Assembly: GCA_002422305.1 (NCBI GenBank)
Contig: DIUG01000068.1
Location: 2,811-66,810 of the forward strand
Source: Patescibacteria group bacterium UBA6164
GTDB lineage: Bacteria > Patescibacteriota > Gracilibacteria > BD1-5 > UBA6164
Direction: 5' to 3'
DNA length: 64,000 bases
A model generated the notes under the pieces. The model did no database searches. It was not told the origin of the DNA and saw only the letters and a list, made by a program, of their open reading frames with translations. Within the stretch, counting starts at the first letter, position 1, and every line of letters begins with the position of its first letter. Of the stretch, positions 17,116 to 59,093 are shown in pieces. Both the position numbers and the translations under genes were made by a program.

Positions 17116-17201
17116 AATATTTCTTTAATAAATTAGAATTAAGTTTTATTTAATAAAATATATCTTTATATTAATTCATAATATAATTCATGATATTTAA
17201 A

Positions 17202-18395: not shown

Positions 18396-18406
18396 AAAAA
18401 TAAAAA

Positions 18407-20860
18407 TTATAAAGGTAATCCAAAGAAATAAACTGAATTGGTATCAATATTTAAAGATCTAGTTCAAAAATTTCTTGCTATTTTGTAAAAATTTGTAAAT
18501 TCTTCACTTGAAAAATATTTAATCTTTTCTAAATTAATTTCTTTCTTTGGTATTAATATTGCTAATGAACCATCTGTAATTGTTCATTTAGGCATTATTC
18601 AAGCTCTAGGATAATATGATAAATTTGGAACAATAATAGTATTCTCTTTATTAAAAAATTTATTAATTTGTAAACTAGAGATATCATCAATAAATATATC
18701 TTCCTTTGTGTCAATAATTTTTCAATTTTTACTCAAATTTCTAGATTTAATTACTCTAATTTTTCCATTTATTGAACAATTCTTCTTTGTTATTTGCCTA
18801 TCTCTAAAAACATCAAAGATTCAGAAATGAAGTTTATTAGTAATCTCATCAAAAAAACTATTTCTATATAATAACCAATATGGAAAATTTGTATTTAAAA
18901 TATAATCTTTAATTTCATATTTATAAGAATTATTAATAAAAGACTCTATTAATACCAAATCACTTTCTTTTGATTTATCTTGTGAAAATTCTATATTAAT
19001 AGTCTCTATTTTTACTCATTCAAATCAACTTTCTCAAAAATCAATAATCTTATGAATTTTATTTTTTGATAAATCTACTCTTATATCATTATACTCAGGA
19101 GAAGATATAAATGATTTAGGAATTATTAGTGAAATATGTTTTCAAATTTCAAGGCTTTTTAATAAAAAATAAACAAAAATATTTGTAGTTTTAATATCAT
19201 AAGCTTTATAATTTAAATCTCATTTTTTTAATTTTTTAAATGGTGGATTTCATAAAATTAAATCATACTTTTTATCAGTATTATATTCTAAGTAGTTTAT
19301 ATTAATAAAATTAATTTTTATATTCTTAGGTAGATTTAGACATGTATCTAATAAAATTTTTAATTTATCTAAAGCATTATTATCAATATCAATAACATCA
19401 ATATTAACATTTTTAATATTTTTATATTTTTCTATAATTAAAGGAATAAAATTTCAAGATCATACTGATGGTTCAAGTATACTTAGTGAATCTTTTTTAG
19501 AAAAATCAGGCAAATCCTTTATAATACTAAATATGATATCTTTACGAGTATAGAATGCTGCAGTTTCATCTTTTGATAAATTACTTAATTCAATAATTTT
19601 AGACAAATTTGAAAATCATAAATCTTTGTGATTTTTTATATAACTTGTAAGATTTTTTTTATCAAATAAATTATTTTCTTTAATTATATTTAAAATTTCT
19701 TGTTTTGATAAATATTGAAAACTTTCTTGTATTCTTATATTTTTAGCTATTTTTTTAAAAACTAATGTAGGAACTGATTCTCATATAACATGTCTAATAT
19801 TCAACTCTTCTTTTTTTAATATTTTTTTCTTTTCTGCTAATGGTAACTTATTTAATTCTTTTAGAGGAGTATTAAACCATTCAAAAGTATTTGGAATTCA
19901 CATTAAATCCATAAGTTCTCTTATACTAAAAACTCTATCATCCTTTGGATGAATAGTATTTTGGCTTGAAAGAATATCATTTCTAGTATGTATACAAGGT
20001 CATATTTTATTCCAATACTGTCTTTTGTATTTATCTCAATTTTTGTTTTGATTTATTATAATTTTTCAATCAACAATTTTATGAGGTTTAAAATTTATAT
20101 CATCATTATCAAATGCACTTTCTCATTCTTTTAATTTTTTTATCCAATCTCTCATTTTAATAGAATATTCTCTAAAAGAGTGTAATAAATCTTTCTCATC
20201 TATTTCTCAAAAAGTACTCAAAGATTTATAATGTCATATACTTTCTTTAAGGGTAATTTCTTTTTTAATTTCATCAGGAAATAAATCATAAGGTGTAACA
20301 TTTTTTATATCTTTTCTTACTCAAATAACTAATGTTCTAGTTCTACTTGATGGAACTCAATAATCTTTAAAATTTATAATTCTACTTCATATATTATATT
20401 CTCATGCTAAATTATTACTGATAGAACTACTAATAGTTTTATCAATTCAATCTGTATCAGTACATAATGTTCATAAAAAAGCCCTAACATTTTCTAAAAC
20501 AAAATATTTAGGTTTGATTTTTGATATAATTTTTAATGATTCAACTACTAAAGAGTTTCTAGATCATTCATTTATTTTTTTATGATTTGCAACTGACATT
20601 CATTGACATGGTGGTGTTGCTACTATAACATCAATATTATGTCATTCTGCTTGTTTAAAAATCTTAGTTTGAACGTCTATATTTCTTATATCTCATAGAA
20701 TATATCCATTTTTATTTTTACACTTATTATTAAATTTTTGAATTTCTAGTCTTTTTTCTAATAATTCATTTGTAGCTATACAATCAAATCACTCATCCTT
20801 AAATCCATAACATCAAACTCATCATCAACTAAAAAGAGAAATATATTTATTTTTTTTCAT
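18407..20860 (-). CDS. fused DNA methyltransferase: N-terminal C5-cytosine MTase + C-terminal N6-adenine (Eco57I-like) MTase (817 aa)
   Basis: C5 motifs FSGGGVG, ATPPCQGMS, ENV. N6 motifs ILEPSVGSGNF and ILGNPPF. Frame verified at both motif sets. Confidence 0.8.
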
Positions 20861-20935
20861 AATGTTATTTAACATAAAGTAAAAGTTAGGAATACTATAT
20901 AAAAAAAATAAAAATTATCAAGGAATATTTATATA

Positions 20936-21760
20936 TTAAACATCTCTATGAAATAAATTATCTATTTCAATATCATTATTAATAGAAACTATATTAATAT
21001 CATTTTTATTACTTGTAAATCTTTCTTTATCATAATATCAATTGCCTTTAATATAATCATCAATAATTCATTTAATATTAATATTAGAAGAAGAAAATAT
21101 TTCATATGTATCAAAATCTTTTTTATCAATAATATTAAAAGTAAATTCACTAATATAGTCATCTATCATATTTTCTATTTCATGAATAATATCAGATTCA
21201 TCATAATAAAATTCAACTTCTCAATCTTCATAACGTTTTATTGTTACAAACTTTTCTAAATTAACTTCATGATACTCATCTTGAATTTTATCTATTAAAT
21301 AATATTCAATATTTTCTTTAAAATAATATAACAAATCTTGACTATGTATTATATAAAATAGATTTGATAATTTTTCTAAGAAATTTCATACAATATTTAT
21401 ATCATCTATATTTAATTCAAGTTGTTTTCACACAATATAAATATCTAAAAATAAAGAAGATTTTATATTTAACTTATCAACATACTTATCAATTAATTTT
21501 ATAATATCAATAAAGGTGTTTTGAAAAATATCTTCTTCTTCAGTATTTTTAATAAAATCCTGTAATTTATTGATAATACTTTCTTCATTAATAGATTCTT
21601 CTGAAAATAATTTAAATATATAATATAAATAATCTAAATTAGTATTATCATCAAAATTATCAATTATTGAACTTAATATAGCATGATAAACTCCTTTTTC
21701 TATATACAATTTTTTTTCTGATTTATCTAATCCAGACTTATAAATCGAATATAAGTTTTT
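20936..21760 (-). pseudogene. C-terminal continuation of the Mrr/NTPase gene in another frame
   Basis: The frame is open from 21760 to TAA 20936-20938 with no plausible start. The frame switch coincides with the A7 homopolymer at about 21758-21764. Contains track ORF 21428..21709. Confidence 0.55.
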
Positions 21761-23297
21761 TTATTGAAATATAAGTATCTAAATTTTTATATATACTTAT
21801 TAATTCATTTTGATTATTTATATATTCATTAATTACAAAATCTGATATTGATGGATTGAATAATGTGTAACTAACTTCTAAATTTTTAGGATTAATATTT
21901 CTATTTAAAAATGATTTTACAGCAACTTTGATTACAAAATTAAAATCTTTTGATTTATGAGTTGGTGAAATAATAGAATCTTTTATCTTATTATAAGAAT
22001 GTAATAGATCTTTTTCAATTATATATCATCCATTAAATACAACTAATTTTATTAATAGTCTAATATATTCATTAGATTGATTATAAAATGAATCTCTCCA
22101 TATATCCTTAGGATTATCTAATTTATCAATTAAAAAATTAAAATATTTATTAGCTTCTACATTAATTCTATCTTTTGTTGTGATAAATTCTATTAATCTT
22201 GGATTAAAACTTTTGTGTTTTATTATTTTTAAATAATTTTTATTTTTATAAATTTCATCAATATATTCATTATCTAAATCTGAATTGTATATATGTTTAT
22301 ATAATATTTGGGCTTTTTCATAATCACTAAAAGATTTTATTTCTAATGTAAACTCATTATTTTGGATTTTTGATTTTCAAAATATAGTACTATAATTTAA
22401 TCAATAATTAAGAATATTACTTCTTGAATTTAAGATAAATTTTTTCTTTCAAGTAGTATTTTTTTTAACTCTATTTATAAAACTTATAATATGACTATCT
22501 TGGTTATTATTTATTGCTTCAAAATAATTACTTCAAAGAAAGTCATCAAAATAAAATAATTGTTTTTCTTCTTTATTCCATACATTTTCTGCTTCAATTA
22601 TTCAGTCTTGAATTTCATAAAATTTATAATCATGTAAAGCAACTAATTTTAAGCATAAATTTTCTGATAGTGTTGTCTTTCAAATTCAAGGATCTCATGT
22701 TATTATTAATACATTTTCATCTTCAAGTTTTTTTAATGCATCATTAAAACTTGAAATTTCAATAAAAAATTTACTTTTTTCTATAATTTGTTCAAATTGA
22801 AATTCACTTCTTCAAATAATAGCATTATTTAAAATGTTTTGAAGTACATTTGTGCTTGTTATCCATAATCTGTAATATTTTCTTTCTATATCATTATTTT
22901 TAGAAAGTTCTGAATTTAAATTTTCATTTCAAAAAATATCATCAGTAGTTTCAATATATGGACTAAAAATAGATTTTATCTCTTTTTTATTTTCATCTGA
23001 TAATAGTAAATCAGTAACAAATATATATTTATCTAACTCTCAATTTAAAGATAAATTTTTAACCTTTTCAACTTCATATTTTTTCAATTTTCTAATTAGT
23101 CAATCATATCAAGTTTTTAAATATTGTTTTGTTTGAATTATTGCAGTTTTATTATTATCATAAAAAAACTTTCAATCAATTCATTTATCTTTTCATGATT
23201 TAAATCTATCAATTTTTGTATTATAAACTTTTTCTAATAAGTCATTTACAAAAATTTCAAATTCTTTATCATCCAATTGTGAAAAATCATAAGCCAT
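21738..23297 (-). CDS. Mrr-like restriction-endonuclease domain + P-loop NTPase, N-terminal 519 codons of a frameshifted gene
   Basis: DDKEFEIFVNDLL...GKDKGIDGKFF (Mrr_cat-like), Walker A ITGDPGIGKTT, Walker B LFYFDDFLG. Ends at TAA 21738-21740 just after an A7 run. Confidence 0.7.
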
Positions 23298-23317
23298 AAT
23301 TCTATCTTACTTAAAAA

Positions 23318-23914
23318 CTAAAATTTTCTCACTAATCCTTTCACAACTCAAATGATATTTATTTGATTTGCTTCAATTATTTTTGTCTTATATTTGTTAT
23401 AATTTTGAAACTCTAAAATTGCCTTTCAAGTCTTATCTTTTGAATATCTTTTTAGAGTAAATTCATTATCTCAATCAATAGTTGCTATTACTAAATCTCA
23501 AATATGAGGATATCTATTATTTAAATCAACAGAAACTATATCTCACTCAAATATTCAAACATCTATCATACTATCTCATTTTACCTCAACAAGAACAACT
23601 CAAGTAGGATTTCAACCTAAAATATATTTATTCAAGTCAATATAGTTAACAATATTAGACTCTATTTCATCAGCAACTCAACAAGTTATATTTCCATAAA
23701 GTCCTGCTCAAGATAATTTTTCAGTAGGAAAGTATTTTTTGTCTTCTTTTGTTAAATATCATTCTTCTACTAATTTTGTAAAAAATCTCGCAATACTATC
23801 TCTTGATGAAATTTTTAATAAATCTATCAAAATATCAAAAGTTGGAATAATTCATTTATCCCAATAATATGATCTCAATTTAGATAAATATAAATCAAAA
23901 TTGCTTTTTCTCAT
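23318..23914 (-). CDS. LexA-like repressor (wHTH + S24 peptidase)
   Basis: C-terminal EVKGDSMIDVGIFEGDIVSV...GDLVIATIDGDNEFTLKRY...IIGVVKGLVRKF (Ser/Lys dyad context). Lies 21 nt upstream of the Mrr/NTPase gene. Confidence 0.75.
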
Positions 23915-23927
23915 AAAAAATATATTA

Positions 23928-23973
23928 TTACTAAAAATATAACTAACATTACTATTTATACCTATTTTAGTAA
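23928..23973. promoter_or_regulatory. candidate operator in divergent promoter region
   Basis: 9-bp inverted arms ttactaaaa (23928-23936) and ttttagtaa (23965-23973), between the lexA-like start and the DUF2779 gene start. Confidence 0.25.
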
Positions 23974-24013
23974 AATAAATATTTTTTGCAAATAATTATT
24001 AATCATTCAAAAT

Positions 24014-25807
24014 ATGTTAATAACAAAATCCCTTTTTGTAGACTACAAAGAATTTCCAAAAGTAGCTTGGTGGAAACAAAATTCAATTGAAACTTACAAA
24101 AAAATTAAATGACTTGAAACGGAAGAACAAGAAATAGCTATTATGGAACTTGGTCAAAAAGTAGAAGATCTGGTTTGAGAATATTTCTTAAAAGTTGAAT
24201 GAATTGAAAAACTTGATGTTTTTTGAGATAATACTGCTTTTGATAATCAAAATGAAGATGATATTGATATGATTATTATAGAGGAGTCATACAAAGAAAA
24301 AAGAGAAAGAAATTTAAAACAAACTATTGAAGCTATAAAAAGAAAAGAACCTCTTATTTATCAACCATGATTTTTAATAGATAATCTTTTTGTGAGATGA
24401 GATTATTTAAAGTTAAATGAAAATTGAAATTATGATTTATATGAAGTAAAAGCAAAAACTTGAGTAAGAAAAGATAAAACTCATGAAAAAATAAAATACA
24501 AAAAAATATGGGAACTTGAAAATAAATTTGTATATGATATTTCTTTTCAAAAATATGTTATCAATAAAGTCCTAAATAGTGAGTGATTATGACAAATAGA
24601 GAATTTTTATTATGTTTACCTTAATTCAGAATATAAAAAAGATTGAGAAATAAATTTAAGAAAAATAATTACAGTGGATCAAGTAGATATTCAAAAAACT
24701 ATTACCTTAGAATGAGAAAAAACAACTAAAGATTTTATAAGAAATGATTCATTACTTACTCCTTTAGTTATAGAATGAACTATACAAAAAATGAGAGAAG
24801 AATTAAATTTTATTGAAGTAGAATTCAATAAAATTCATCCTTTTTCTTGAAGTAAATCTATAGAATATTTTGGAAAAGATAGAGAATTTTGAACTATTTA
24901 TTGAAAATGACTTAATCATTGTAATAAAGCCGTAAAAGAGCTACATTATTCATGAAAAAGTATACTTGATGATTTAAGTGAAAATGAACAAATATTATTC
25001 AATAAAACTGATTGAAGTATTTGAGATGCAAGACAATATATTATTAACTATTTAGAAGCAAAAAACATTTGAGAAGATTTTATAGATAAAGAAAGTATAA
25101 AACTTGAACTTGATGATTTAAAATATCCAATTTGTTTTTATGATTATGAAAGTTGTAGTGTACCAATTCCATTTTTAGATAATACTTCTCCTTATCAACA
25201 TGCTGTTGTTCAATATAGTATGCACAAAGTTTATGAGGATTGAACTATAAAACATTTTGGTTGAGTTTTAGTTGGAACTTGAGAAAAAGAAGTAAAACAA
25301 ATAGTAATAAAAAATAATAAAAATAAAGTTGATTTTGAAAGTGAGAAAGTAATAACTTGATGATACAAGGATTTATTAGATGAATTTATAGCTGATATAT
25401 GAGAGGATTTAGATAAAACTTTTATAGTTTGGTATAAACCTTTTGAAAATACAAGAAATAAAGAAATTGCTGAAACTTTTCCAGAACTAAAAGAGGCATT
25501 TGAAATGATAAATGAAAATACTTATGATCTGATGGACATATTTTCAAAATGATATTATTATTCCTTAAGATTTGAGTGATCTAATTCAATAAAATATGTA
25601 TTACCAGCTCTTGTTTCAGAAATGACATACAAAGACATGGAAGTCCCAAATTGACTTGTTGCAATGCAAACCTTAAATCAAATAATTGAGTGAAAAATTA
25701 CTTGAGATGAAAAAGAAAAACAAATAAGAAATTTGCTATTATATTGTGGGCAAGATAGTTTGGCTATGTATAGAATTTATGAGAGGATAGTCGAAAGCAT
25801 TAAATAA
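24014..25807 (+). CDS. DUF2779-family protein (RecB-like/exonuclease-like), 597 aa
   Basis: N-terminal LITKSLFVDY and the central block FYDYESCSVPIPFLDNTSPYQHAVVQYSMH resemble the DUF2779 signature. Confidence 0.55.
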
Positions 25808-27498: not shown

Positions 27499-27828
27499 AT
27501 GAAAAAAGTAATATGAAACAGATTATATGATACAGATAAATCTGAAATGATTTGAGAATGTAAATTTAATGAAGATTTAAGAAATTCTTTTTATGAGGTT
27601 TTATTTAAATCTCCATGAGGACAATATTTTATTTATGGTCAAGGTTTAAGTTTTATTTTCTACAATGATCTTTGAAAATTTGGGAAGTATTGAGTTAATA
27701 CTTATGATATTGTGCTTGTTACACCTGGGATTATAAATAAATGGTTAGAGGTTAGAGCTCAATTTTTTAATCATTGAGAAGTGGAAAAAATTCTAAAAAA
27801 AATAACTTATAAAATAACCGAAGGATAA
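27499..27828 (+). CDS. small hypothetical protein (109 aa), paralog of the next gene
   Basis: MKKVIGNRLYDTDKSEMIG...GGQYFIY. Shares YDT..K.IG and GQYFIY with 27831..28151. Confidence 0.5.
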
Positions 27829-27830
27829 TT

Positions 27831-28151
27831 ATGAAAAAAACAATAAAATATAAAAATTATGACACTAGTACTGCAAAACTTATTTGAAAAATGACTAAAT
27901 TTTCACCTAGAAAAGCAATGAATTTTAATAAGTTTCTTTATAAAACTAAGAAATGACAATATTTTATTTACCAATTTCATGAGGACACAATGAGATGGAG
28001 GAAGTTTTGATTTAAGAAAATTTTTGAGCAATTTTATCTTGTTGAATCTGATGATATTGTTAAATGGCTGGAAGATGATTTTAAAGACTTTAAAAAAGAA
28101 GAATATGACAAAATAGTTGAGGAAGTTAAAGGAGTGTTGGCAATAGGATAA
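27831..28151 (+). CDS. small hypothetical protein (106 aa), paralog of the previous gene
   Basis: MKKTIKYKNYDTSTAKLIG...KGQYFIY. Starts 3 nt after the previous stop. Confidence 0.5.
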
Positions 28152-30390: not shown

Positions 30391-31071
30391 TTATTTAAAC
30401 TTTTTTAACACAATAGTCATACTTGAAAAAAATAAATAAAAAGTTTTCATCAAAATATAAAATGGCATTTTTATTATTTCTATAATAAAATCAACTGCTG
30501 AATATATTGTAAAAATAAAAAAAAATTTAATAACTTTTCATAGTTCTTTTATTGATGATATTCATTCATGTACTTCCTTTTTCTTTTTTCTTTTATATTG
30601 AAACATCTCTATATCAGAAAAAGCATCTTCATTTATTTTATCTCTTACAAGTTTTGAATAATATAAAAATCCATGATAAACTCATTCTCAAACTTCTTTT
30701 TTTACTCATTTAATAGAAATAAATAATTGTCTAAAACTATCATCTAAATAATTTAAAATATCTTTTTGTCATAATTTTCTTGATTCTCTATATGAATAAT
30801 AAAGATATATAGGAAATAAAAATCAAATAATATTAGCAACCATATCTCATAAACTTGCTTCTCAAAATCAAAGTAAATCTATAAATTCTTTAAATAATCA
30901 TATCATTATTGTATCTCTAAGAGCAAAAGCAAATGCATAAGATCAGTTTTGTTTATTCTGAATAAAATAATACCTAACAATAAAATCAAAAATCAATATA
31001 AATGCACTTACAATTATATGTTTTTGTTTATCATTTTGATAGAAAAAATCTATTATTAAAGAAAAATCCAT
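30391..31071 (-). CDS. multi-pass membrane protein (226 aa)
   Basis: ATG at 31071 to TAA 30391-30393. Hydrophobic segments throughout. Confidence 0.55.
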
Positions 31072-31099
31072 GTTTAATAAATTAGGAAATATTTATAGA

Positions 31100-31612
31100 T
31101 TATTTATTATTATTTTCAATATATTGAATTGTTTTTTTTGTACTTTTTATCTCTTTAATTATTTTATACAGCCTATAAGGTCATACAAATCCTCATATAA
31201 TACAAGAAAATGCTAACTTAATTACTTTTTTCATAATTAAAGAAATTATTGATTCATTTACTACTATTTCTATAGTATTAGGGTCTTTTAATGAGTTTAA
31301 AAAACTCCATCAAAATCAAACAAATATGGTAAAATAAGTGATAAAAAATATCTTTAAATATCATTCCATATTAAATGAAAAATTTCTTTCATTAGTAATT
31401 TGATAAACATAAAATAATGATACCAAACTTCATATTAAAAAATATTTTATTATATCTGTATAGTAATTCTTGATATCAAGATTTAATGCTTTTAAATTAC
31501 ATTTATCACATACAGGTATAGTAAATTGATTAAAACAATCTTTACATAATCACACAGAACAATATTTACAAGTTCAAATTGTGTCTTTATCTCCATGTTT
31601 ATAACATTTCAT
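31100..31612 (-). CDS. B-box-type zinc-finger membrane protein (170 aa)
   Basis: MKCYKHGDKDTIGTCKYCSVGLCKDCFNQFTIPVCDKCN followed by 3-4 TM segments. Confidence 0.6.
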
Positions 31613-31625
31613 AATAAAAAATAAT

Positions 31626-31820
31626 AAAAAAATAAGATAAGCAGATTTGCTTATCTCATAATTGTTTATAACAAAGTGGAGAAAGCAACCCTGCTTACCC
31701 AATCTTGAATGATTTTTAATAATTCGTAAAAAACTGGAAGGTTACTTTCTCCAGTTTAACTACGAAATTAAATACAATAAAAACCTGCCATTATTGGCAT
31801 CACAAGATGTGGTAAGCAAA
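31626..31820 (-). ncRNA. unclassified structured RNA (~190 nt), stand-alone sRNA or riboswitch-like leader of the membrane-protein operon
   Basis: Relatively GC-rich. Closing helix ugcuuacc..aucuug / caagau..gguaagca. Internal hairpins gcca-auaa-uggc and uucgua[cuggag...cuuccag]uacgaa. A 14-nt alternative pairing joins uggagaaaguaacc and gguugcuuucucca. G:U pairs occur only in minus-strand sense. A terminator hairpin plus U-run lies at 31626-31656. Confidence 0.65.
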
Positions 31821-31823
31821 AAG

Positions 31824-31851
31824 AATATACTTTTTTATTTTAAAAAGTCAA
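31824..31851 (-). promoter_or_regulatory. sigma70-like promoter for the structured RNA
   Basis: On the minus strand: TTGACT (31851-31846), a 16-nt spacer, TATATT (31829-31824). This places the start at the first base of the closing helix. Confidence 0.5.
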
Positions 31852-31960
31852 CAAAAACCACTTAAATAACTGCTTTAAAAGTAATTTTATACACATTTAT
31901 TTTGCATTTTAAAAAAATAAATGCTACAATATACACATATAAAAGTAATATATCTTTCTT

Positions 31961-33871
31961 ATGTGAATTGAAACTTCAACATATGATACTAATGAGACTC
32001 TGTCTACTCTAGAAACTCAAAATAATACTCCTCTATCAAATGAAGAAATAGAGGATATTTCTGTTTCAAGAATGTTATACAAAGAAAGACTTGCTTTAGT
32101 TGAACAAAGAGCAAAAGTAAAAGATGAAAATTATGACAGAGCACAAGATTTATTAAAAGATTATCCTCATCAAAACAATTTCATAAAATATAATGGACTT
32201 TTTTACAGAGATATAATAAGTGTTGATTTTTGAGAGTCAGGCAGACCTTTTGTAATTTATGTTCCAAAATTTTCAAGACAAGATTTAGAAGAATATATTA
32301 CTGATTTTGATAAAGAACAAGAAAACTTAAAAAGTATTGAAAGACTTTTAAGAGATAATCCAAATAATCAAACTTTTTATGAATTAGATGGAAAATATTA
32401 TACTTCAAATCCAAGTAGAGTTCCTTGAAATAATATAAATGCTATTTTAAGAGTCAAACAAGTTTCCAGAACTCACCTTGAAGCAAAAGTTGAAAGTATA
32501 GAAAAATGAAGTATTGAAAGTATTTCTCTGCAACTTGATAGAGCAATAGCAAATACAAATAATTGAAACATAAGAAATTATTTAATGGATTTAAGGATTT
32601 GAATCAGTTTAAATGGAAACAATGATTTAATACTTACTTTTTGAGAAAGAATTTGAAGTTTAATAAATCTACTAGAAAAGTCTGAAGTACAACCTCTTAG
32701 TATATCTGAAATATGAGAAATAATGTTACTTATTTTTAATATTCTAAGAAGTTGAGTAAGTGATTGAATTAGAATAATGATATCACTCATAAAAGATGTT
32801 AGTTCAAATAAACTTTATAAATTTTGAGAAGAAGATAGTGAATATGAAAAAATTATTAGAGAAAGTTTTGAAACTGGAAATATTTGAGTTGCTATTTCAT
32901 TTTTAGAAAAGATTTTTCCTACAAACTTTGTAGAGTGAGTAAGAGAATGATGAATTGATACTGCTTCACTTCCTCTTGCAATTTGAGCAGGGTGAATTGA
33001 TGGTTTTTTAGATTATATACAAGCAAGTGTTGATATAGTTGTTATTCCAGATACTATTATTCAAAATATATGACAACTTAGTGCTGAAATTTATAGAAAT
33101 GGAGGAGATTTAATAAATGAACTTGCTAAAAATTTTACAAAAGTAAGTGATTATATGTATGTTTTATCATATATAGTTGCTGTTGTATTATCATTTAAAG
33201 TTTTACCTTCAAAATTTTGAATTCTTGCTTTACCAAATGTAATTATGAGATGATTACAAGCAAGTTGAAAAATCCCTGCAAATATGCTTGGATGAGTAAA
33301 TAATTTTTTAACAAATAATATTCAAAAAATTGAAGTATTAGTAAATAACAATATAAAATGAGTTACTATTAGTAGTGAAAAAATATGAACTTGAATCAAT
33401 ACAGCTCTCAGATGAAGTCAAAAAGTGAGAGATAGTGTTGATGGAAGTAATACTTTAATAAATTCTATTTGAGTAAATGCTAGACAAGTAAGAGCATCAA
33501 GAGAAGCACTTTCTATAACGAATAATTCACTAAAACTTGCATCTATTTTTTGAGAAAGTGTTGTTTGAAGAACAAATGAAACACTCACAACAAAAAATGC
33601 TATGAGTGCTTATAAAGAAATGATTTTAAAGTTAAATGGATTTAATAATGATGATATAGATGCACTTATAACTGAAACTAAATGAGAAGTAAGGTATAAT
33701 CTCGTTTTAATAAGAGAAAGACTTATGGAAGTGGAAGAGGTTATTGAGAGTGAGGTTTTGCCTATATGGAATAGTCGTGATAAATTAACATTAAATCAAA
33801 AAATTACTATATTAAGCCAAATGCATAAATATAGTGATTTATGAAAATTAATAATAAAAATGTTAATTTAA
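31961..33871 (+). CDS. large hypothetical protein (636 aa) with central hydrophobic segments and a variable C-terminal tip
   Basis: ATG 31961 to TAA 33869-33871. The C-terminal 60 aa before the tip are duplicated at 34564-34746. Confidence 0.6.
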
Positions 33872-33887
33872 TAAATAAATAAAATTA

Positions 33888-34493
33888 TTAATCTCAAAAA
33901 ATTTTCATTAATCATAAAATGAATATTAAACTATTTACTGTGTATTCATTAAAACGAGGGTCTTTTATTCAAATTCTTTCGATTTCTTTAAAATATTCAC
34001 TTATTACAATAAATAAATTTCAATTTTTATCTCTATCATAATAAAATCAACTTCAAACTTTTTCTCAATTTTTTAATCTTTTTTCAGTGTATTGTCTATC
34101 AGTAAACAATTTTTTACTAAGAATATTTCAAAAATTATCAATATCATATCATTTTATATCAAATATTGTTCTTCATAAATCATCTACATAAGCTGATAAT
34201 TCTCAATTTGATATCCTAATAGAATATATATTAGTTCAAGTTATTTCATTTAAAATTTTTTTATGTTCATCTATATTTTTTCCTAACTGCATAAGTTTAA
34301 TAATAGCACTTTCAAAAAAACACTTTTGTTCAGGATACTTTTCAATAAGTTTTTGTCTCAATTTTTCTACTAAAATCTCTTCATTTAGTTTTTCTCTTTC
34401 TTCTCTACTCCAATTAAAAGTATCTGCTATTTCAGGAGTTTCTAGATTTTGTTTTATTTCACAAGTTTGTGATGAAGTTTCTAAATTTTTCAT
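33888..34493 (-). CDS. hypothetical protein (201 aa), conserved N-terminus / variable C-terminus, cassette partner A
   Basis: Extends track ORF 34236..34493 through TGA to TAA 33888-33890. Convergent with 31961..33871. Confidence 0.55.
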
Positions 34494-34542
34494 ATTTTTT
34501 ATTATTTTTAATAATATTTATGAAATTGTATCATATTTTTAT

Positions 34543-34896
34543 ATGTTTTGCAAAAATTATGCTACAAAAAATGCTATGAATGTTTATAGAGAAATGATTT
34601 TAAAATGAAATGGATTTAATAATGATGATATAGATGCACTTATAACTGAAACTAAATGAGAAGTAAGATATAATCTTGTTTTAATAAGAGAAAGACTTAT
34701 GGAAGTGGAGGAGGTTATTGAGAGTGAGGTTTTGCCTGTTTGGAATGAGAATGAAAAAATATTAAATGAATGATTATTAGAAGGAGATAGTATTATAATT
34801 TATAACAACTTTAAAGAAAATATTATAAAAGATATAACAAAATATGATGAATTATCACAAATAATTTTTAGACAATTTATTTTAAAGACCCTTTAG
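34543..34896 (+). CDS. orphan alternative 3' cassette of gene 31961..33871 (117 codons)
   Basis: MFCKNY-ATKNAMNVYREMILKGNGFNNDDIDALITETKGEVRYNLVLIRERLMEVEEVIESEVLPVWN is followed by a different tail. Ends at TAG 34894-34896. Confidence 0.45.
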
Positions 34897-35404
34897 GTAA
34901 ATAATATATATAGATATACATATTAAATCTTGTACTTCATTCAGGAAAAAAAGTATTATCTTTAGGATTAAATAAAACAAATTTTCAATCTTTTTTTATA
35001 ATATGTGAATTTCATATTCTTCTACTAAGTAAATTTGCAAAATCATTATCAAAATCAAAACTTGAAATATCAAATAATGTATTTCAATTTTGGTCTAAAT
35101 AAGATAGTAAATCTCAATTAGATGCAAATAATAAAAATATATTACTATTTGTTACTTTTTCTATTGCTTCTAATTGTCTTTCATAATTTCATCACAACTG
35201 CATAATTTTAATAACAGCACTTTCAAAAAAACATTTTTGTTCAGGATACTTTTCAATAAGTTTTTGTCTCAATTTTTCTACTAAAATCTCTTCATTTAGT
35301 TTTTCTCTTTCTTCTCTACTCCAATTAAAAGTATCTGCTATTTTAGGAGTTTCTTGATTTTGGTTTATTTCACAAGTTTGTGATGAAGTTTCTAAATTTC
35401 ACAT
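34877..35404 (-). CDS. hypothetical protein (175 aa), cassette partner B (paralog of 33888..34493)
   Basis: The N-terminal ~70 aa are nearly identical to partner A (..NLETSSQTCEI.QN.ETP.IADTFNWSREEREKLNEEILVEKLRQKLIEKYPEQKCFFESA) and the C-terminus is unrelated. Overlaps the orphan cassette 3' end by 20 nt. Confidence 0.5.
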
Positions 35405-35515
35405 ATTTTTTATTATTTTAATAATATTTACAAAATTGTATCATATTTTTATATGTTTTGCAAAAATTATAGATTTCATTTTTAACTGAAAATAGAAATA
35501 TAAACAGATAGTAAC

Positions 35516-35541
35516 AAAAAAAGGCATAAATGCCTTTTTTC
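35516..35541. terminator. bidirectional terminator
   Basis: aaaaa-aaggca-taaa-tgcctt-tttt. Confidence 0.65.
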
Positions 35542-35709
35542 TTAAATACCAAATTCATCATCTCACAAAAATCATTCTAATTTATTTTCAAAATTCATCA
35601 ATCATTTTTCACTTAACTCAATTTTCTTTAACTCTATATCTTTTTTTGATACTCATTTTTTAAATTCATTAGATTTCTCTAACTCTTTCTTAATTTTAAT
35701 ATTTTTCAT
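35542..35709 (-). CDS. small charged hypothetical protein (55 aa)
   Basis: ATG at 35709 to TAA 35542-35544. Weak support. Confidence 0.3.
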
Positions 35710-36079
35710 AATAAACTTTTTGTTATTATGAAAAATAATTTCTCAAAGATCTTGTATTGAAAGTATTTTTCATTTATTAAATAAAATAATTTTTACACTT
35801 TTATAAAGACCATAAAATTATATAATTTTTATGGAAGATATTTAGGGGTAAATTGGGAACAATTGAAAAAAATACCATTTTCTTCAATCAAGAATTCTTA
35901 AAACTATATAGTTAGCATGATACAGAACATCTTATACCTTACTTTTATATATTATATTAAGATTTTTAAAAAAAATTGAGTTTTGTATATTTTTATTATT
36001 TATTTTTTATAGGTTTTTGATTTTTTTCAGAAAATTTATATTATATCCAAGTTAATTCTTATATTTTAATTTTATAAAT

Positions 36080-36334
36080 ATGGATAATAATTGATTAAAT
36101 GATATTTTAACAGGATTAATCACAAATTGACTTTGGGATTTTATAAAAGTTTTTTTAAAGTTTTTATTCTGAGGTATAATTTTATGATGATTATCATTTT
36201 TGGGATATAAATCATATAATAAAAATATTAAAATTTGAGATAGGACAAAAATTAAAAATAGTTTTAAATCAAAAATAAATCAAGATATTGAGATTTGAAA
36301 ATGAGTTGAAGTTGATGATAGCTTTAAATCTTAA
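36080..36334 (+). CDS. small single-TM protein (84 aa) overlapping the start of the STAND NTPase gene
   Basis: MDNNGLNDILTGLITNGLWDFIKVFLKFLFGGIILGGLSFLGY... Ends at TAA 36332-36334, giving a 20-nt overlap with the next gene. Confidence 0.45.
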
Positions 36335-39300
36335 AAATCTATTGATGAATAAAAATATACAAATATGAGATTTTGCAAGTGTAAAGGATAGTTTTAATAA
36401 CTATAAAACTATCAATATTTTATGATTCCAAAATATAAAATGATTTCTAAAACAAATAGATTGAAGAAAAAAAGAATTAGATTTACTTTGAGAAGATTAT
36501 TATATTTCTTTAGATTTTTCTGAGTGATGAAAAATTAATTCTATTTTAAATGAAGATAGATGTATTATTATTTGAAATCCTTGAAGTTGAAAAACTCAAT
36601 TATTAGTAGACATATTTTATAGAATAAAAAATAATTTAAATAAAAGATGGTGATTTTATAAAAACAATGAATTTTTACCTTTTTTTATATCCTTAAGAAA
36701 TTTATGAGAAAATAGTTTAGAAGGATATTTAGATGAAAAAATAACTAAATTTAATATCAAATGAGATCAAAAATTTATTTTACTTTTAGACTGATTAGAT
36801 GAAATAAATTTAGATAAAACAGCTGATATATTAGATTTTATAGAAAATAATCAAAATTATAAATATATAATTTCTTCAAGAAAAACTAGTAATAACTTAT
36901 GACAACTTTTATCTAAATATTCAGAATTCAGGCAATATACTATACAAGAATTTAATTTTGATATTGAAAAATGATGAAATACTCAAATTTTAGAAGAATA
37001 TTTTAAAAATAAATGAAAATTTATAAATTTAGAAAAGTATAAAAAATTACAAATAGAAATAAAAGATATCTTTTATTTAGAACAATTTTATGAAGTTTAT
37101 GAAAAATTAGAAGAAAAAGATTGAAAATTAGAACTAACTGAGAAATTTTTGAAAGAAATTTCTAATAAAAATAATGAATTAATAAAATTCGAAATTAATA
37201 CAGATGATTTATTTTTATTATTAACAAAAGTTTCAGAACTTTTATATAAGATTAATTCATTGACTTTAGAAAAAGAAAAAATACAAGAATTTATTAAATC
37301 TCTGTCAATTCAACAAAAAAAGAAAAAAATGTTTTTAGATTATATGTTAAAAACATTTTTTATTGAATCTGAATGAAAATATTCTTTTTACCATAAAACT
37401 TTTTATGAATATTTTTTAGTTAGATATATTTCAGAAAAATATTTGAAAAACAAATTAAGTATTAGAGAATGAAATATTTTACTTGATAATCAATTTATTA
37501 TAAAAATATTTTTTCCTTATTTACAAAGAAGTTATATTGAAAATGAAAACTATTCTTGAATTGTTGGATTGAATCTATTTATGCAATATTATTTAAGTCA
37601 TAATCCTATAGATGAAATTAATTCAGAAATTTTTCTAAAATGACTTTTTAATTTATCAGAAGATTTATTAAGGTATTATATTTTAGAAAAAACTTCACCA
37701 ATTTATCATTGGTTTAATAATTTTCATTATTTAAATTTTAACATTATAAAAATAGCTTTAGATAAATGATATAAGGATATAGCAAATGGTTTTTATAAGA
37801 AATTAAATGATTTGATAGAAGAAAAAACACAAGAAAGAAAAAATATTAAAGAAAAATTATGAAAATTAGACAAAAACGATGAAAAATATAATTTTAACAA
37901 GCATGAATTAGAACAAGAATTAGAACATTTATTTGATGGTATTAATTTCAAAGATCAAGCATATATAAATAAAAATCTGAATGAAAATATTAAATCTTAT
38001 TCTGATTTATATGAAAAGATAAAATCAAATTATGAAATAAATATTTATACAAGAATAGATTTTACTTCAAATTTTTTTGATTCACCTTATTATGCTTTTT
38101 TTGATAATCTATTAAAATATTGAAATAAAGAAGAAATTTTAAAAATAATAAATCAATTTGAAAAGGATGAATTTTATACATTTTTACAAGTTTGACTAAA
38201 ATTAGAAAATATAAAAAATATTTTGTGAAATCACAATATCTTAAATTTAATCAAAGAAAAATTTATTTTTTATAAATGAGATTTTAAAGAATTTATAAAC
38301 TATAATAAAGAAGATTTGAAAATAAAAGATAGTGCTATTACTTTATTTTTGAAATATATTTTTTGATTATACGAAGATGAAAAAGAAATATTTGAATCAG
38401 AAGATTTTAAAGAATTAAAAGAATGACATAATTGATTTTTTAATATCCATTGGTGATTTTATGAATCTAATATAAATAATTCTCAATTAGCTTCATATTT
38501 GTTTTATAATCAAGTAAATTTAAAAGAAATTGTTGAAAAAGAATTTATTTTCTCAAAAACTGAAACAGAAGAAGAAAGCATATTTAGGTATAAATATTGA
38601 TATAATATAAGGTGTATTTATCAATATAGTTATAGTATTTTTATTGATAGTATTTTAAAAAATGAAAAAATAATTTTTCAAGAATATATTGAAATAATAA
38701 AAAGCTATTCATCAATGAGATTAATGGATGATTTTAATATAAGAATAATTTATTCAGAAATTTTAGCATATATATTTTATTATAATATTGAATGAGATTA
38801 TTTTAAAAATATAAATCTAATTTGGGATAATTTAAGTGATTTTGTTGATGAAATTAATTTTTACAAAACATTACAGAAATTAGATGAATTAAATAAAACC
38901 AATAAATTATCAAATACTATTAATGAAGAAAAAATTATATTTTTAGAAAATAATATAGAGAAAAAGTTCGATTATCCTGCTTCAGAAGTAGAAGATTATA
39001 TTTTTATTTCTCAGTTATATTGATTAATCTGAAATAATGATTTACAAATTAAAAGTTTTGATAGTTGAATTGCACATTCTTATGTAAAATATTGATTTAG
39101 AAAAGATTACTATCTTACATATGTTTTTGAAATATTGGAAGAGTTAAAGTATAATTCTATAATTACAGAACAAGAAACATATCAATATTTAGATGAAATA
39201 ATTGATTTGTATTGAAAAATTGATTGAATTACTGAAAAATGAGTTGCTTATTTATGAAAAAATATAGTTAAATTTCTTTTAACATTTAGTTTTAATAAAG

Positions 39301-39983
39301 CTATAGAATATAAAAATAAGATAAATGAAATTAATTATAGTTATTATGATGAGATAGAAACTAGTATTTTAATTCAAAAAATAAATAATAATAATTTTAC
39401 AGATGATGAAATTGAAAATTTATATTTCTATGATACTAGAACTAGTTTATTAGAATTAAAAATATATTTGTATTTGGTTGATATTTGAAGAGATGACTTT
39501 ATAGAAAAGGTTAATGACTTATTAGTAGATATAGAAAAAGAAACTAATATTGATTATTATTGGAATAGTGAAGATTATGAAGTTTATAAAAAATTATATG
39601 ATTTATGAAAAATTAATAAATCTGAATCAATATTAAAAGAATTAGAAAAACCAGAGAGAGAAATAAATGAAATAATTTCTTTAAAAGATTTAAATGATGA
39701 TGAAGTAGTTAAAATTTTAAATGACAAAGTTTGTTATTGAATGTACCATACTAGTTTTTCATGAGATTATAATTATTTATTAAATGAATTATATATAAAA
39801 GATAAAAAATTATTTAATTCCTATATATCAAGAACAAATTTTAAATATGATGATAAATATGAATATGAGTTTTTTGCAAATATTCAGTGATTAACAAAAG
39901 TTTACATAGAAAATAAAGAGAGAGAGAAAGTAATTTTATTATTTGAGGAACTATTAAGTTTTTCTTGATTATTGATAAAATAA
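36315..39983 (+). CDS. NACHT-like STAND P-loop NTPase with long helical C-terminal region (1222 aa)
   Basis: Walker A IIIGNPGSGKTQLL, Walker B ILLLDGLDEI. Contains track ORF 37149..37376. Ends at TAA 39981-39983. The start could alternatively be ATG 36345. Confidence 0.7.
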
Positions 39984-40011
39984 TTACCAAAAATCTAAAC
40001 AATTAAATAAC

Positions 40012-42300
40012 ATGGATAAAACTTATTATAACAACAAAAAACATTTATTTATTAATGAAAATAATGAAGTATTAGAAAATATTTCATATTTTCAGTTTGC
40101 TTGAAATAAAATAAATATTAGGTTTAGTAATTGAGATAAAATTTATTCATATAAATCTAATTCCATAACAATTTTAAAAGATCCCAAAAATATAGATATA
40201 TATAGTAATTTATTTTATCTTGAAAAAACATTATTATTTAATATTAAAGAGGTTTTATATTTCTGAAATAAATATTATAGAGTGTTTTTAAAAGAATGAT
40301 GAGTTATTACAAGTGATAAAATCAAAATTATTGAAAATATTATGAAAGATGAAAAAGTATCTTCTATTATAGATTATTTAAAGTTAGTTTTAAATAATAT
40401 TGAAAATAATGAAGTAACAAAACATTTAAAAAGAGAATATGAAAAATTAGAGAATATATTACCAGGTAGTGTATTGTGAGATTTTCTTTTCAAAAAATTT
40501 ACAAATAAAACTAGCTACTTTAAACCGAAAGAATTAATTTATCCTTTCAATTTTAATCTTAGTCAAAAGAGAGCTCTTGAAAGTGTTTTTGATTCCAATA
40601 TATCTGTTATTGAATGACCTCCTTGAACTTGAAAAACTCAAACTATTTTGAATATAATTGCAAATCTTGCCATAATGCAAGATAAAACTATTGCTGTAGT
40701 TTCAAATAATAATTCTGCAATAGCAAATGTAAGAGAAAAATTAGAAAAAGATTGATATGATTTTTTTGTTGCAATGTTAGGAAATAAAGGGAATAAAAAT
40801 ACATTTTTTTCTAATATTCCTGAACTAAAAGAATTCAAAAGTGATAAAGATTGAAATTATACTTCAAAATTAGAAGAGATTTCTAATTTAATGAATATTG
40901 ATAATGAGAAGCAGAAAATAAAACTTGAATTATCAGACTATATTTTAGAACAAGAACATTTTGAAAACTATTTTAAAAAACAAGAAATAAACGAATTATT
41001 TAAATTACCAATTTGGGCTAAAAATTCAGATAAAATAATGAATTTTCTAGTTTTAAATTCTAAAAAATCTAAAAAATGAAAAAATAAATGATGGTTGTAT
41101 AAGATAGAGCTTTTCATAAAGTTTTGATTTACTGAATTTAAAAAATTAGACACAAGTGAAATAGATCTTATTTTATCGTATCAAAGAAAATTTTATGATT
41201 TTAAAATATGAGAATTAATGGATTTATTATCTGAATTAGATAAAAAACTTCAAGATAATAAGTATGAGAATTTAGTCTCTGAATACATTAAGTTTTCTAA
41301 AATATTCTTTGAAAACAAACTTAATTCAAAATTTAAAAAATTTAAGTGATTAACTTTTTCTTCAAAAGATATTTTTAATTTATCTTCAGGTTTTACAGAA
41401 AGATTTCCTGTAATTTTAAGTTCAACCTATGCTTTATTAAACTCTATACCGAAGTGATTTTTATTAGATTATGTAATAGTTGATGAATCTTCTCAAGTTG
41501 ATCTTATTACAGGTATCCTTATTCTTTCATGCTGTAAAAATGTTATAATTGTATGAGATAGGAAACAACTTACTCATATTACAAATTGAGAAAAGGTAAG
41601 TGTAAGTGTTGATGAAGATTTTGATTATTATAAGCATAATATTTTATCATCTGTTTTAAATATTTATAAAGATAAGATTCCAATTACACTCTTAAAAGAA
41701 CATTATAGATGTCATCCAAAAATAATTAATTTTTGTAATCAAAAGTATTATAACTGAGAACTTATTATTTATACATCTAAATGAGAGAATACAAATCCGC
41801 TTGTTATTTATCGTAGTGCAGAATGAAATCATATGAGAAGTATAACTCAATGAGATAGTACTTGAAAATATAATCAAAGAGAAATTGATATTATTCAGGA
41901 TATTTTATTGAGTAATAAAGAAAATTTTACTGAAAAAGATGACATATGAATTATAACTCCTTTTAGAAAGCAAGTAGAAAAATTAAATAGCATAATTTGA
42001 GAAACTATAGATATTGATACTGTTCATAAATTTCAATGAAGAGAGAAAGATATTATTATTTTTTCTACAGTATTAGATAACTCAAAAGATTGAAATTTAA
42101 CTCTTAAATTTGCAGATCAACCAAATCTTATAAATGTTACAATTTCTAGAGCAAAAAATAAATTTATAGTTGTTACTGATAATGACTTATTTTTTAAAAG
42201 ATGAAGAGAAATTAAAGATTTTGTTAAATATGTTGAATATAGTTCTTTAGATGAAAACATTAAAAATAGTGAAATAGTTTGAGTATGATCTTTTGTATAA
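40012..42300 (+). CDS. SF1 (Upf1/DNA2-like, AAA_11/AAA_12) helicase (762 aa)
   Basis: IEGPPGTGKTQTILNIIANLA, VIVDESSQVDL, LKEHYRCHPKIINFCN, VHKFQGREKDIIIFS, INVTISRAKNKFIVV. Contains track ORF 40891..41079. Confidence 0.85.
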
Positions 42301-44105: not shown

Positions 44106-44666
44106 TTAATTTTTAAATTTTCTTTTAAGTATTCCAGTATTTTTTGATACTCTTTCTGAGGTTACTTTAGATATTGAAGATAATATATCTGGTGCTTTTT
44201 CTCAACAAGTTTGATTAATAAATTCATTCAATGTATCTTGAACAATTTCTTTTCTTGACCAAAAATTAAGTCATCAGCCATCTATATTTAAATTATTAAC
44301 TTTTTTGATATTTTCTCACTTATAAATTGGAATAAGATGAAAGTGAAGATGTTTTGAATTTTCTCAAGAATTTAATGATATAATATTTACTCTATCAATA
44401 TTTACATCACATTTTTTTATTGTTACACATGCTTTATTTAATAATATTCCTAATTCTATAATTACTTCTTGAGGCAATATACAATCACTGATGTCATTAA
44501 TATGTTTACCTATATCATTTATTAATTCTTTTTTTAAAATTAATAAACAATGAAAATCACACAATGGGTTTATACTGTGTACAAATTCCCAATATTTCAA
44601 TGTATTATCAATCTGTTGTTCTTTATTAGGAAATGAACTTTTACAAAATATACAATTTTTTTTCAT
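44106..44666 (-). CDS. HIT-family nucleotide hydrolase/transferase
   Basis: MKKNCIFCK... and the histidine triad HLHFHLIP. Track ORF 44364..44720 is trimmed to ATG 44666 and extended through TGA. Confidence 0.65.
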
Positions 44667-44695
44667 AGTACTTTTATAATATTTAATAATATATT

Positions 44696-45844
44696 CTATT
44701 TCTGAATAGAAGTATTCCAAAATTCTTCTGTCTCAATTATTTTTATAAATCTTTCTGTCTCAATTATTTTTATAAATCTTTCTCATGCTTTTCAATCACC
44801 AAAAGTTAAACATTTAGGATATATTTTATTTTCTTCCCATAATTCATTAATTTTGTTTTTAACTTCATCTGAATCATAGTTAACATTATGAATACTTTCC
44901 CAATTATTTCTATTATTTTGTCTTGTTCATATATTTACAGTCGGTACTCAAAGTGTTGGTGCTTGTCTAACTCAAGCACTAGAATTTCAAACAATACATT
45001 TAGAACTTTTTAATATAGTTAAAAAATCATTAAAAGGAATTGAGTCAAATATTCTATAAGATTCTTTAAATTTCTTATCAATTATATATTTGTTAAAATA
45101 TTTTATAACAATATCAGAACTAGGATCATTATTAGGATATATAAGTATAAATTTTTTATTAGATTGTATTAATCCATCTAAAACATTAATGCAATGTTGC
45201 TCAAAACTTGATGTTTCAGTAGTAACTGAGTGGAAAATAAATATTCAGTATTTTTCAAAAGGTATATCATATTTAATTTTAAGTTCATCTATTTTAGATA
45301 ATTCATCTCAAAACATTACATCAAAATCTGGAGATCATATAGAATATATATTTTCTCTTTTTTCTCACATTATTTCTAACTTGTCAGCAGATTTATCATT
45401 TGCCACAAAATGTACATGTGAAAGTTTAGATATAAAATGTCTAACTGATTCATCAATACTACCTGAAGATTCTCATCATTCTACATGTGCTACAAGAGTA
45501 TTTGTAAAAGATCAAGCAATTACTCAAGCTAATGCTTCAACTCTATCTCCATGAATTACTATTAAATCTGGATTAATTTCATGAATATAGTGAGATAGAT
45601 TTATTATAGTATTTGCTATAACTATTTCCTGCTTTTCTCAAACATGTTGATTTATATTTAGATAAACATTCTGATGATTTTCATCTAAAATCTCTTTGAA
45701 AGTAAATCAATACTTTCAAAGCATATGCATTCAAGTTACAAATACATAACTCTCAAAGCTATAATGTTTATCGACCTCTCTTATTAAAGATCTTATTTTT
45801 CAATAATCAGCTCTCGTTCATGTAAGAAATAAAATTTTCTTCAT
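44696..45844 (-). CDS. neuC: UDP-N-acetylglucosamine 2-epimerase (hydrolysing), NeuC-type
   Basis: [61 protein letters not shown]. Has a C-terminal in-frame 27-bp duplication. Confidence 0.8.
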
Positions 45845-57437: not shown

Positions 57438-57480
57438 TGCCTTAAAATATGGAGTTCGACCGAGTTCAAATCTTACAAGG
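57438..57480 (+). other. degenerate remnant of a tmRNA 3' end (T-arm)
   Basis: gcctt...cgaccGAGTTCaAATCTtAC compares with tmRNA gccttccgagacgtGAGTTCgAATCTcAC. The acceptor/CCA part is not conserved. Extra agttcga fragments lie at 57363 and 57452. Confidence 0.45.
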
Positions 57481-57508
57481 TGTAAAACTATTTTTTAATA
57501 AAAAATCT

Positions 57509-59083: not shown

Positions 59084-59093
59084 TAATAGAAAT

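Follow-up and report, generated by a model that had tools for sequence, protein, structure and literature searches.

Two adjacent genes of Proteus mirabilis, encoding IdsD and IdsE, carry co-varying variable regions that are thought to set binding specificity; the Ids proteins depend on a type VI secretion system, and displaced cassettes are not known from that system. Closer in architecture to the locus considered here are the orphan modules of Rhs and contact-dependent inhibition (CDI) loci: in Salmonella a body-less orphan rhs-CT and the main gene share 522 bp at 95% identity, recombination joins the two, and full-length genes of other strains carry the orphan tips (PMC3967940). The present subject is a gene pair, A and B, together with a displaced neighbouring copy, A2 and B2, in a 64,000-nucleotide stretch (hereafter the window) of contig DIUG01000068.1 from Patescibacteria group bacterium UBA6164; the closest named relative is a Candidatus Gracilibacteria metagenome-assembled genome (MAG). 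Gracilibacteria and their relatives are uncultured, recoded and probably episymbiotic or predatory, and to our knowledge their cell-cell interaction machinery is almost unknown. The orphan-cassette kind of architecture is already known; what is new here is two uncharacterised protein families in a recoded candidate-phylum bacterium.

The body of A ends in a conserved segment (the left arm) that is followed by a short divergent C-terminal tip. B begins with a conserved N-terminal block, which together with its upstream region forms the right arm, and continues into a variable distal part. The sequence between the two arms is the core of a cassette, and a second arm-core-arm unit with A2 and B2 stands directly behind the first (Table 1). 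A sequence-only reading of the window had proposed a tandem unit of ~0.95 kb, and this was borne out by a repeat finder and global alignment (unit 1, 33590-34563; unit 2, 34564-35470), by direct repeats and by an independent, identical assembly. The raw left direct repeat (33590-33787/34564-34761) is 91% identical over 198 nt, and further direct repeats lie at 34223-34508/35134-35419 and 34496-34560/35406-35470. In a unit-versus-unit profile the identity mosaic is sharply broken at 33772/34746 and at ~34285/35196, with arms 94.5-98% identical between units and cores near background. The left arm of 183 nt that had been called conserved is 94.5% identical, and under genetic code 25 the 636-aa protein, the convergent partners and the tips of 32 and 49 aa were all found; the arm covering the partner's N-terminus and promoter is conserved as proposed (96-98%), with its unit-2 start near 35196 and not at 35206. 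The best overall explanation, and on balance a probable one, is that A and B carry an exchangeable hypervariable module whose old allele has been kept as a displaced neighbouring copy.

Comparison across 12 independent loci with available DNA gives this explanation its footing. The convergent A-B pair is present in all 12, and its 3' ends usually overlap by 20-36 nt (L001, L002, L003, L010, L011, L012 and L013; gaps of a few nt in L006 and L014); in the window the antisense overlap of A2 and B2 is 20 nt (34877-34896), and A and B of cassette 1 are instead separated by a 16-nt gap. Identity collapses right after the EVLPx[WF]N motif in the window and in the 12 loci. Sliding nucleotide identity runs at 85-93% through body and arm, drops at the window equivalent of 34717-34746 and recovers at ~35180-35195, and these population transitions between conserved and variable sequence coincide with the ends of the arms in the window. 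The tips are of several types (...LPGF..., ...SQIIF..FILK..., ...ANIIFRNYIK), each paired with a matching type of B tail. Tip type does not follow the body of A. Within a clade whose A bodies are 85-95% identical, tip identity ranges from 15% to 97%: L002 and L009 have bodies 93% and tips 21% identical, while L011 and L005 have tips 68% and bodies 61% identical. In Mantel tests that left out the overlapping terminal eight codons, the tip was correlated with the B tail (r=0.67, 0/5000) and with the middle of B (r=0.58, 0/5000), and with the A body at only r=0.21 (429/5000), so that the module is uncoupled from the body. The survey of relatives that had been suggested from the sequence accordingly turned up diverse tip and partner alleles, with the tip 2 type on the full-length A of L001 and L010.

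Exchange of the module between lineages is proven by discordant synonymous divergence (dS). L002 and L013, a pair with a recent transfer of the module, differ by dS of 0.59 in the body and 0.65 in the arm, and by only 0.05 in the tip, 0.00 in the B tail and 0.09 in the middle of B; in L002/L009 and L008/L009 the body has dS of 0.2-0.3 and B of 0.8-1.9. L008 and L009 belong to one MAG (JBLJBH01, contigs 38 and 1) with two complete A-B loci, whose bodies are 93% identical in amino acids (dS 0.21) and whose tips and B are very different; a single genome here carries different alleles at two loci. In the comparison of the window with L001, dS stays at 0.34-0.47 throughout, and the ratio of nonsynonymous to synonymous change (omega) is 0.95 in the tip and 0.70 in distal B vs 0.11-0.23 in the flanks. 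These comparisons show that the variable module, consisting of A's last 30-50 codons and about the distal two-thirds of B, is hypervariable and inherited as a unit, and that lineages trade it through homologous recombination in its conserved flanks, which are the 61-codon A arm up to EVLPxWN on one side and the N-terminal block of B on the other. The cassette geometry and the swapping of tip and partner by homologous recombination, as first proposed, are thus upheld by population data; the labels of toxin/immunity and antigenic variation attached to them are not, since no such features were found.

The history of the two cassettes can be read against L001, the closest relative (A body 87% nucleotide identity). 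Core 2 is 78% identical to L001 and orthologous, and core 1 is 59% identical, which is background. The arm pairs have 13+8 derived sites in common against L001, and private changes number 8 in arm 1 and 2 in arm 2. Window B is the outlier of its family in the middle region (31-44% identity vs 56-94% among the others), its distal part is the most divergent in the whole family, with insertions of 18 and 6 aa, and in tblastn it aligns to other partners only to aa ~130, where B2 aligns full-length with every partner. Because core 2 is orthologous to L001 and B is the family outlier, cassette 2 (A2 and B2) is shown to be the resident ancestral allele, now displaced, and the core of cassette 1 a much more divergent newcomer on the full-length gene. 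The tandem state, or the last arm homogenisation, is later than the split from L001.

The two cores are not unrelated, as had been supposed. They are homologous, as the 79-nt island at 72% identity attests; the alignment of B and B2 stays significant beyond the arm, as far as aa ~130 (core score 109; 0/2000 shuffles), and in the family alignment they match end to end, B with its two insertions. The tips align weakly (3/2000 shuffles), and both carry the family tail motif KY.xL..II. Between cassettes, dS is 0.056-0.16 in the arms and 0.39 in the alignable B core, where omega is ~1.45 (small numbers). Detectable core homology and a lack of allelic diversity had been named as signs of simple duplication plus drift; the homology was detected, and allelic diversity is clearly present.

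Such homology gives some room to a plainer account, in which an incidental tandem duplication was followed by divergence, A2 is dead, B and B2 are plain paralogs with no cassette function, and the arms stayed alike through purifying selection or occasional gene conversion. The end-to-end homology of B and B2, the shared tip motif, the moderate core dS and the presence of the tandem state in one of 12 loci all agree with it, and the variable region is fast in place (omega 0.7-0.95 with dS unchanged), so that much divergence can arise without import. We nevertheless judge it unlikely. The 2.5- to 7-fold difference in dS between arms and core goes beyond purifying selection, and plain duplication with uniform drift is excluded because the dS pattern is a mosaic; core 1 has diverged further than have the partners of lineages in which A-body identity stands at only 57%; exchange of exactly the A-tip/B module, with the same boundaries, has been demonstrated between genomes; and orphan-like fragments recur in other lineages.

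These fragments come from an exhaustive search, which returned many proteins matching arm and tip only. Some of them are artefacts, being open reading frames (ORFs) called after a TGA and starting 'MESEVLP'; such spurious short 'proteins' arise because public entries fragment code-25 genes at TGA. Others are harder to dismiss. P0057 has eight unrelated residues followed by the arm, and lies in the interior of its contig flanked by two minus-strand genes, a geometry like that of B, A2 and B2. P0043 and P0047 each lie on one 1,970-nt ENA contig, with arms ~85% identical and tips unrelated, and the C-terminal-only fragments P0066, P0054 and P0061 lie on contigs of 110, 42 and 25 kb. Taken together, these arrangements are suggestive of recurrent real orphan cassettes in other lineages.

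The new allele would have reached the expressed position either after a tandem duplication of the arm-to-arm unit in which one core was later replaced, or through Campbell-type insertion of an arm-core-arm circle. Two routes would fit the sequences alike: a foreign core may have been imported through the arms, or duplication may have been followed by very rapid divergence while gene conversion kept the arms alike. Either way the old tip would have been displaced as a promoterless, body-less fragment, with the old partner B2 still whole and preceded by a promoter copy of its own. If the two 183-nt arms recombined, 974 bp would be lost and A would again be joined to tip 2, beside B2, an event of the kind documented for orphan Rhs tips in Salmonella. 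The left boundary of the duplication (33590) falls within a hairpin with a 14-bp stem (33579-33611) that resembles a terminator on the minus strand and whose second half carries mutations in unit 2; such a hairpin might have helped to set the breakpoint here.

Because the source contig was assembled from a metagenome, it could be asked whether two strain alleles of one locus were wrongly concatenated, and the L001 contig, which ends inside the B arm, shows that assemblers struggle at this locus. An artefact of this kind is very improbable. Over 30450-36022, a stretch that takes in both units and both outer flanks, the window is matched at 100% identity by an independently assembled JGI contig (L015, sample 3300001605), so the tandem is no accident of a single assembly; the 3-nt sequence at which the units meet is novel and not what a strain bubble produces, which makes concatenation of strain alleles very unlikely; and the arms are distinguishable, differing at ~3-5% of sites.

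Programmed variation from a silent cassette, as in pilE/pilS or vls, would make A2 a silent donor whose sequence is transferred into the expressed A, so that an exposed epitope varies. A2 does lack a promoter and is a partial copy having a conserved segment in common with the expressed gene, and the tips are hypervariable with omega near 1, as such a system would lead one to expect. There is, however, one donor copy only; the unit carries a complete partner gene with its own promoter, unlike silent-cassette systems; intermediate mosaics between arm 1 and arm 2 were not seen; and surface exposure is unsupported, A having no signal peptide and its tip lying C-terminal to a single hydrophobic hairpin. 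This account is therefore improbable. A diversity-generating retroelement (DGR) acting on A's 3' end is hardly conceivable. DGRs are frequent in candidate-phyla bacteria and target C-terminal regions, which lends the idea some general appeal, yet neither variable core recurs in the window (beyond AT-rich matches of <=20 nt), no reverse-transcriptase-like ORF is present there, and the arm mismatches are not specific to adenine (G>A 3, A>G 3, C>T 2, T>G 1, A>T 1). With no template repeat, a mixed mismatch spectrum and no such ORF, a DGR is effectively refuted for the window.

Protein A, mostly alpha-helical, has 12 close homologs among 5.8 billion clusters, and an exhaustive profile search of 1.84 billion representatives brought its family to 39 members. 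Because these include members without TGA recoding and one that is G+C-rich, the family is broader than Gracilibacteria. A metagenome scan with a protein profile and an exact 30-nt arm pattern gave no matches, a scan of reference genomes found two loci only, both from one MAG, and no relative of the A/B family was found in viral contigs or phage genome records. A contains one conserved hydrophobic segment of helical-hairpin length (aa ~394-428); no signal peptide or N-terminal hydrophobic signal was found in it, and no surface-protein features in A or B. For structure prediction the homologs P0003 and P0017 stood in for the window proteins. The model of the A homolog consists almost wholly of helices; a pair of beta-hairpin/helix repeats at the N-terminus is better defined. 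A fold search with this model gave no match. A distant member, P0049/P0069 (184 aa, from two sources), joins a P0035-like stretch of its first ~52 residues straight to its last ~130 (arm and tip); it looks like a 'mini-A' that has lost the whole middle through internal deletion.

The B family has 17 relatives and a size range of ~175-215 aa. Its homolog was modelled with confidence (predicted local distance difference test, pLDDT, 85; predicted template modelling score, pTM, 0.83) as a soluble alpha/beta protein, with no significant structural match in the PDB or among BFVD viral models (best E 0.06 and 0.1). B occurs in long and short forms that differ by an N-terminal insertion of ~35-45 aa (…INHQERIINPPAVVRTAESLGISEKTAGN…), long in L013, L014, L006, L009 and L003, and short in L002, L008, L010, L011 and the window. 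The N-terminal form assorts independently of tail type, since L002 (short) and L013 (long) have identical tails.

What the module does is the weakest step of the proposed mechanism. We suggest that it forms a binding-specificity interface, in which the C-terminal helix of A would be recognised by the distal half of B, the two co-evolving under diversifying selection, and that B may be a cognate neutraliser or regulator (immunity- or antitoxin-like) of a putatively membrane-active A. A neutralising role, which is suggested by the genetics alone, would account for the retention of an old, intact B2 with its own promoter. On a wider and more doubtful reading, possible but no better than tentative, A and B would be an undescribed polymorphic effector/neutraliser or self-recognition system of candidate-phyla bacteria, in which a short C-terminal helix of a membrane-inserting protein of ~640 aa is the specificity determinant read by a partner of new fold, and displaced spare partners pile up as genomes switch alleles. 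Tip and partner would then be exchangeable only together, because the partner overlaps in antisense.

Several observations weigh against these ideas, and some against the exchangeable module itself. Co-inheritance of tip and B tail does not prove that the proteins interact, as adjacency and antisense overlap force part of the co-variation. The tips are all homologous and only 32-49 aa long, which sets them apart from the toxin domains of ~100 aa or more in Rhs and CDI proteins and means that they cannot be seen as unrelated domains swapped for one another. Searches for toxin, immunity, secretion or defence signatures in A and B came back empty: A, B, A2, B2 and 10 distant relatives of A gave nothing credible in Pfam, PHROGs, NCBIfam or PADLOC, and profile searches of both families against PDB sequences gave no match. 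The model of the A homolog is of low confidence (pLDDT 49). Import and rapid divergence in place are inseparable, because core dS is only ~0.39 with omega ~1.45. Finally, in the flanks available for the 11 other loci with DNA neither a second arm nor a further B occurs, which makes the tandem state a rare or short-lived one. The L001 contig ends (12371) inside B's conserved N-terminal arm, and those of L005 and L012 end within or just after B; such ends may be repeat-induced assembly breaks, that is, undetected cassettes.

Table 1. Features of the two cassettes and of their surroundings in the window (genetic code 25)
Feature	Position	Strand	Description
Promoter-like element 5' of A	31901-31930	+	TTTGCA-18-TACAAT with extended TG; consensus match only
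Gene A	31961-33871	+	636 aa under code 25
Left arm, copy 1	33590-33772	+	183 nt, A's last 61 conserved codons (TKNAM...EVLPIWN); 94.5% to copy 2
Tip 1	33773-33871	+	A's divergent 32-aa C-terminal tail; atypical short allele, degenerate KY.DL..II motif kept
Gene B (partner 1)	33888-34493	-	201 aa, convergent to A; N-terminal 70 aa 95% identical to B2
Conserved island in core 1	34134-34212	-	B aa ~95-120; 79 nt, 72% identical to 35045-35123
Right arm, copy 1	34285-34560	-	~275 nt, B's first ~70 codons and upstream region; 96-98% to copy 2
B promoter-like element	34525-34553	-	TTGCAA-17-TACAAT, TG-extended; second copy in unit 2
A2	34543-34896	+	Orphan 3' fragment of A-type gene, 117-codon ORF; first 7 codons in B's promoter arm, A homology from 34564
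Junction GCT	34561-34563		Unit 1 end/unit 2 start; novel join, absent at both outer boundaries
Left arm, copy 2	34564-34746	+	91.8% to L001 ortholog vs 88.5% for copy 1
Tip 2	34747-34896	+	49-aa tail, typical '...SQIIFRQFILKTL' type; on full-length A in L001, L010, P0032
Gene B2 (partner 2)	34877-35404	-	175 aa, start MGNLETS, intact; end-to-end alignment with partners of all other genomes
Right arm, copy 2	35196-35470	-	B2 N-terminus and upstream region; homology stops at 35470
Duplicate of B promoter-like element	35435-35463	-	Upstream of B2
Two large serine recombinase genes	9806-13020	-	Slightly overlapping neighbours, 514 and 564 aa; Resolvase N-terminal domain in both, Recombinase domain also in first
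C5 cytosine methylase fusion	18407-20875
Mrr_cat+nSTAND3 protein	21738-23297
DUF2779	24014-25807
STAND NTPase, then superfamily 1 (SF1) helicase	36315-42300		NTPase of 1222 aa with weak mad8 match; helicase resembling Mokosh MkoA/MkoC
Type I restriction-modification HsdM/HsdS	57449-60880

A2 has no A body, and no promoter-like element comparable to those of A and B was found upstream of it. The promoter assignments should be read with care: overall the promoter scan did no better than shuffles (52 found vs 46.5 expected), and the duplicated TG-extended element is a hint only. An open frame of 234 codons runs from A2 back through the antisense of B; it was rejected as meaningful and is compositional, since in every locus the N-terminal region of B has one antisense frame with few stops.

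The window has a G+C content of 21% and uses genetic code 25 (TGA=Gly) throughout. Under the standard bacterial code (table 11) it yields almost no long ORFs, only fragments; with TGA as sense, the summed length of ORFs of >=100 aa rises from 3,225 to 23,777 aa. P-loop and nucleotidyltransferase motifs read GxxGxGK and ARGGSKG only if TGA=Gly, and in gene A there are 32 TGA codons vs 12 GGN. No tRNA genes were found in the window, so tRNAs offer no corroboration of the code. In public protein collections, code-25 genes are mostly translated with TGA=Trp (e.g. P0001, P0014) or broken at TGA.

The A-B pair of the window is located within a mobile/defence island, whose defence content spans 15076-25807, 36315-42300 and 57449-60880; in other loci it is found in ordinary chromosomal context too. 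The two large serine recombinases, ~20 kb from the cassettes, are the nearest recombinases in the window, and in three lineages (L001, L002 and L006/L007) a large serine recombinase directly adjoins the pair. Elsewhere in the window, two tandem small paralogues of 109 and 106 aa (27499-27828 and 27831-28151, plus strand) have similar N-termini (MKKxI..YDT...LIG) and a common GQYFIY motif, and gave no confident family match. The minus-strand ORFs 44106-44813 and 44696-45844 overlap, and short in-frame amino acid direct repeats stand at the gene ends (RKIYKNNWD x2; FIKIIETE x2).

With its clear signs of diversifying selection and of cassette exchange between lineages, an orphan copy included, and made as it is of proteins that have no described relatives, the A-B module offers a concrete candidate for a role in recognition, competition or addiction at the strain level among Gracilibacteria and their relatives. 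The orphan-cassette logic of Rhs and CDI loci arises here with a very different layout, a convergent overlapping partner and a tip of ~40 aa, and a search built around a large toxin domain and a co-directional immunity gene would pass it over. If the specificity reading is true, specificity lies in two short segments, and the interaction is directly testable by tip swaps.

Among known systems, silent cassettes such as Neisseria pilE/pilS, Borrelia vlsE and the Mycoplasma MgPa repeats likewise combine an expressed gene with a promoterless partial copy, in which conserved segments stand on either side of variable sequence, and work by homologous recombination. Here, by contrast, the 64-kb window offers one donor only, a whole partner gene with its promoter is part of the cassette, and the exchange on record is between genomes and not within a clone; the two available assemblies are identical. 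The G segment of phage Mu and the C segment of P1 also switch a C-terminal tip with a cognate small partner gene, and their alternative partners face each other. Those segments invert site-specifically at inverted repeats with an adjacent invertase; the direct repeats found here, and the absence of an adjacent invertase, do not fit an invertible switch of the shufflon or Mu G type, the recombinases of the window being of the large serine type ~20 kb off, and the family is absent from phage and viral collections. IdsD and IdsE are similar in being two adjacent genes, each with a variable region that co-varies between strains, and have no sequence or fold relationship to A and B.

Membership in the polymorphic toxin systems is not supported, because the tip is small and homologous, the partner is convergent, and no delivery or toxin domain was found. 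RHS/YD repeats, TPS/FHA, haemagglutinin repeats, PAAR, LXG and other delivery domains were not found in A or in 10 distant relatives, and the tips, all of which end in a common amphipathic motif, have no match in Pfam, NCBIfam, PADLOC or PHROG. In all 12 loci the partner runs convergently, usually with its 3' end overlapping that of A, unlike the downstream co-directional immunity genes of Rhs and CDI loci; B is itself a mosaic of conserved N-terminus and variable distal part; and A carries a hydrophobic hairpin in its interior and lacks a signal peptide. Both families are uncharacterised. With the orphan modules of these loci (rhs-CT/rhsI, cdiA-CT/cdiI) the A-B locus nevertheless has in common a conserved body, a sharp demarcation and a variable C-terminus linked to a cognate partner. 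It shares with them a displaced promoterless 3' fragment with a ~95% conserved stretch, 183 nt here vs 522 bp in Salmonella (PMC3967940), as well as an orphan tip type carried by full-length genes elsewhere (here L001 and L010), direct repeats that permit fusion of the orphan tip to the main gene, and an old partner that is still intact.

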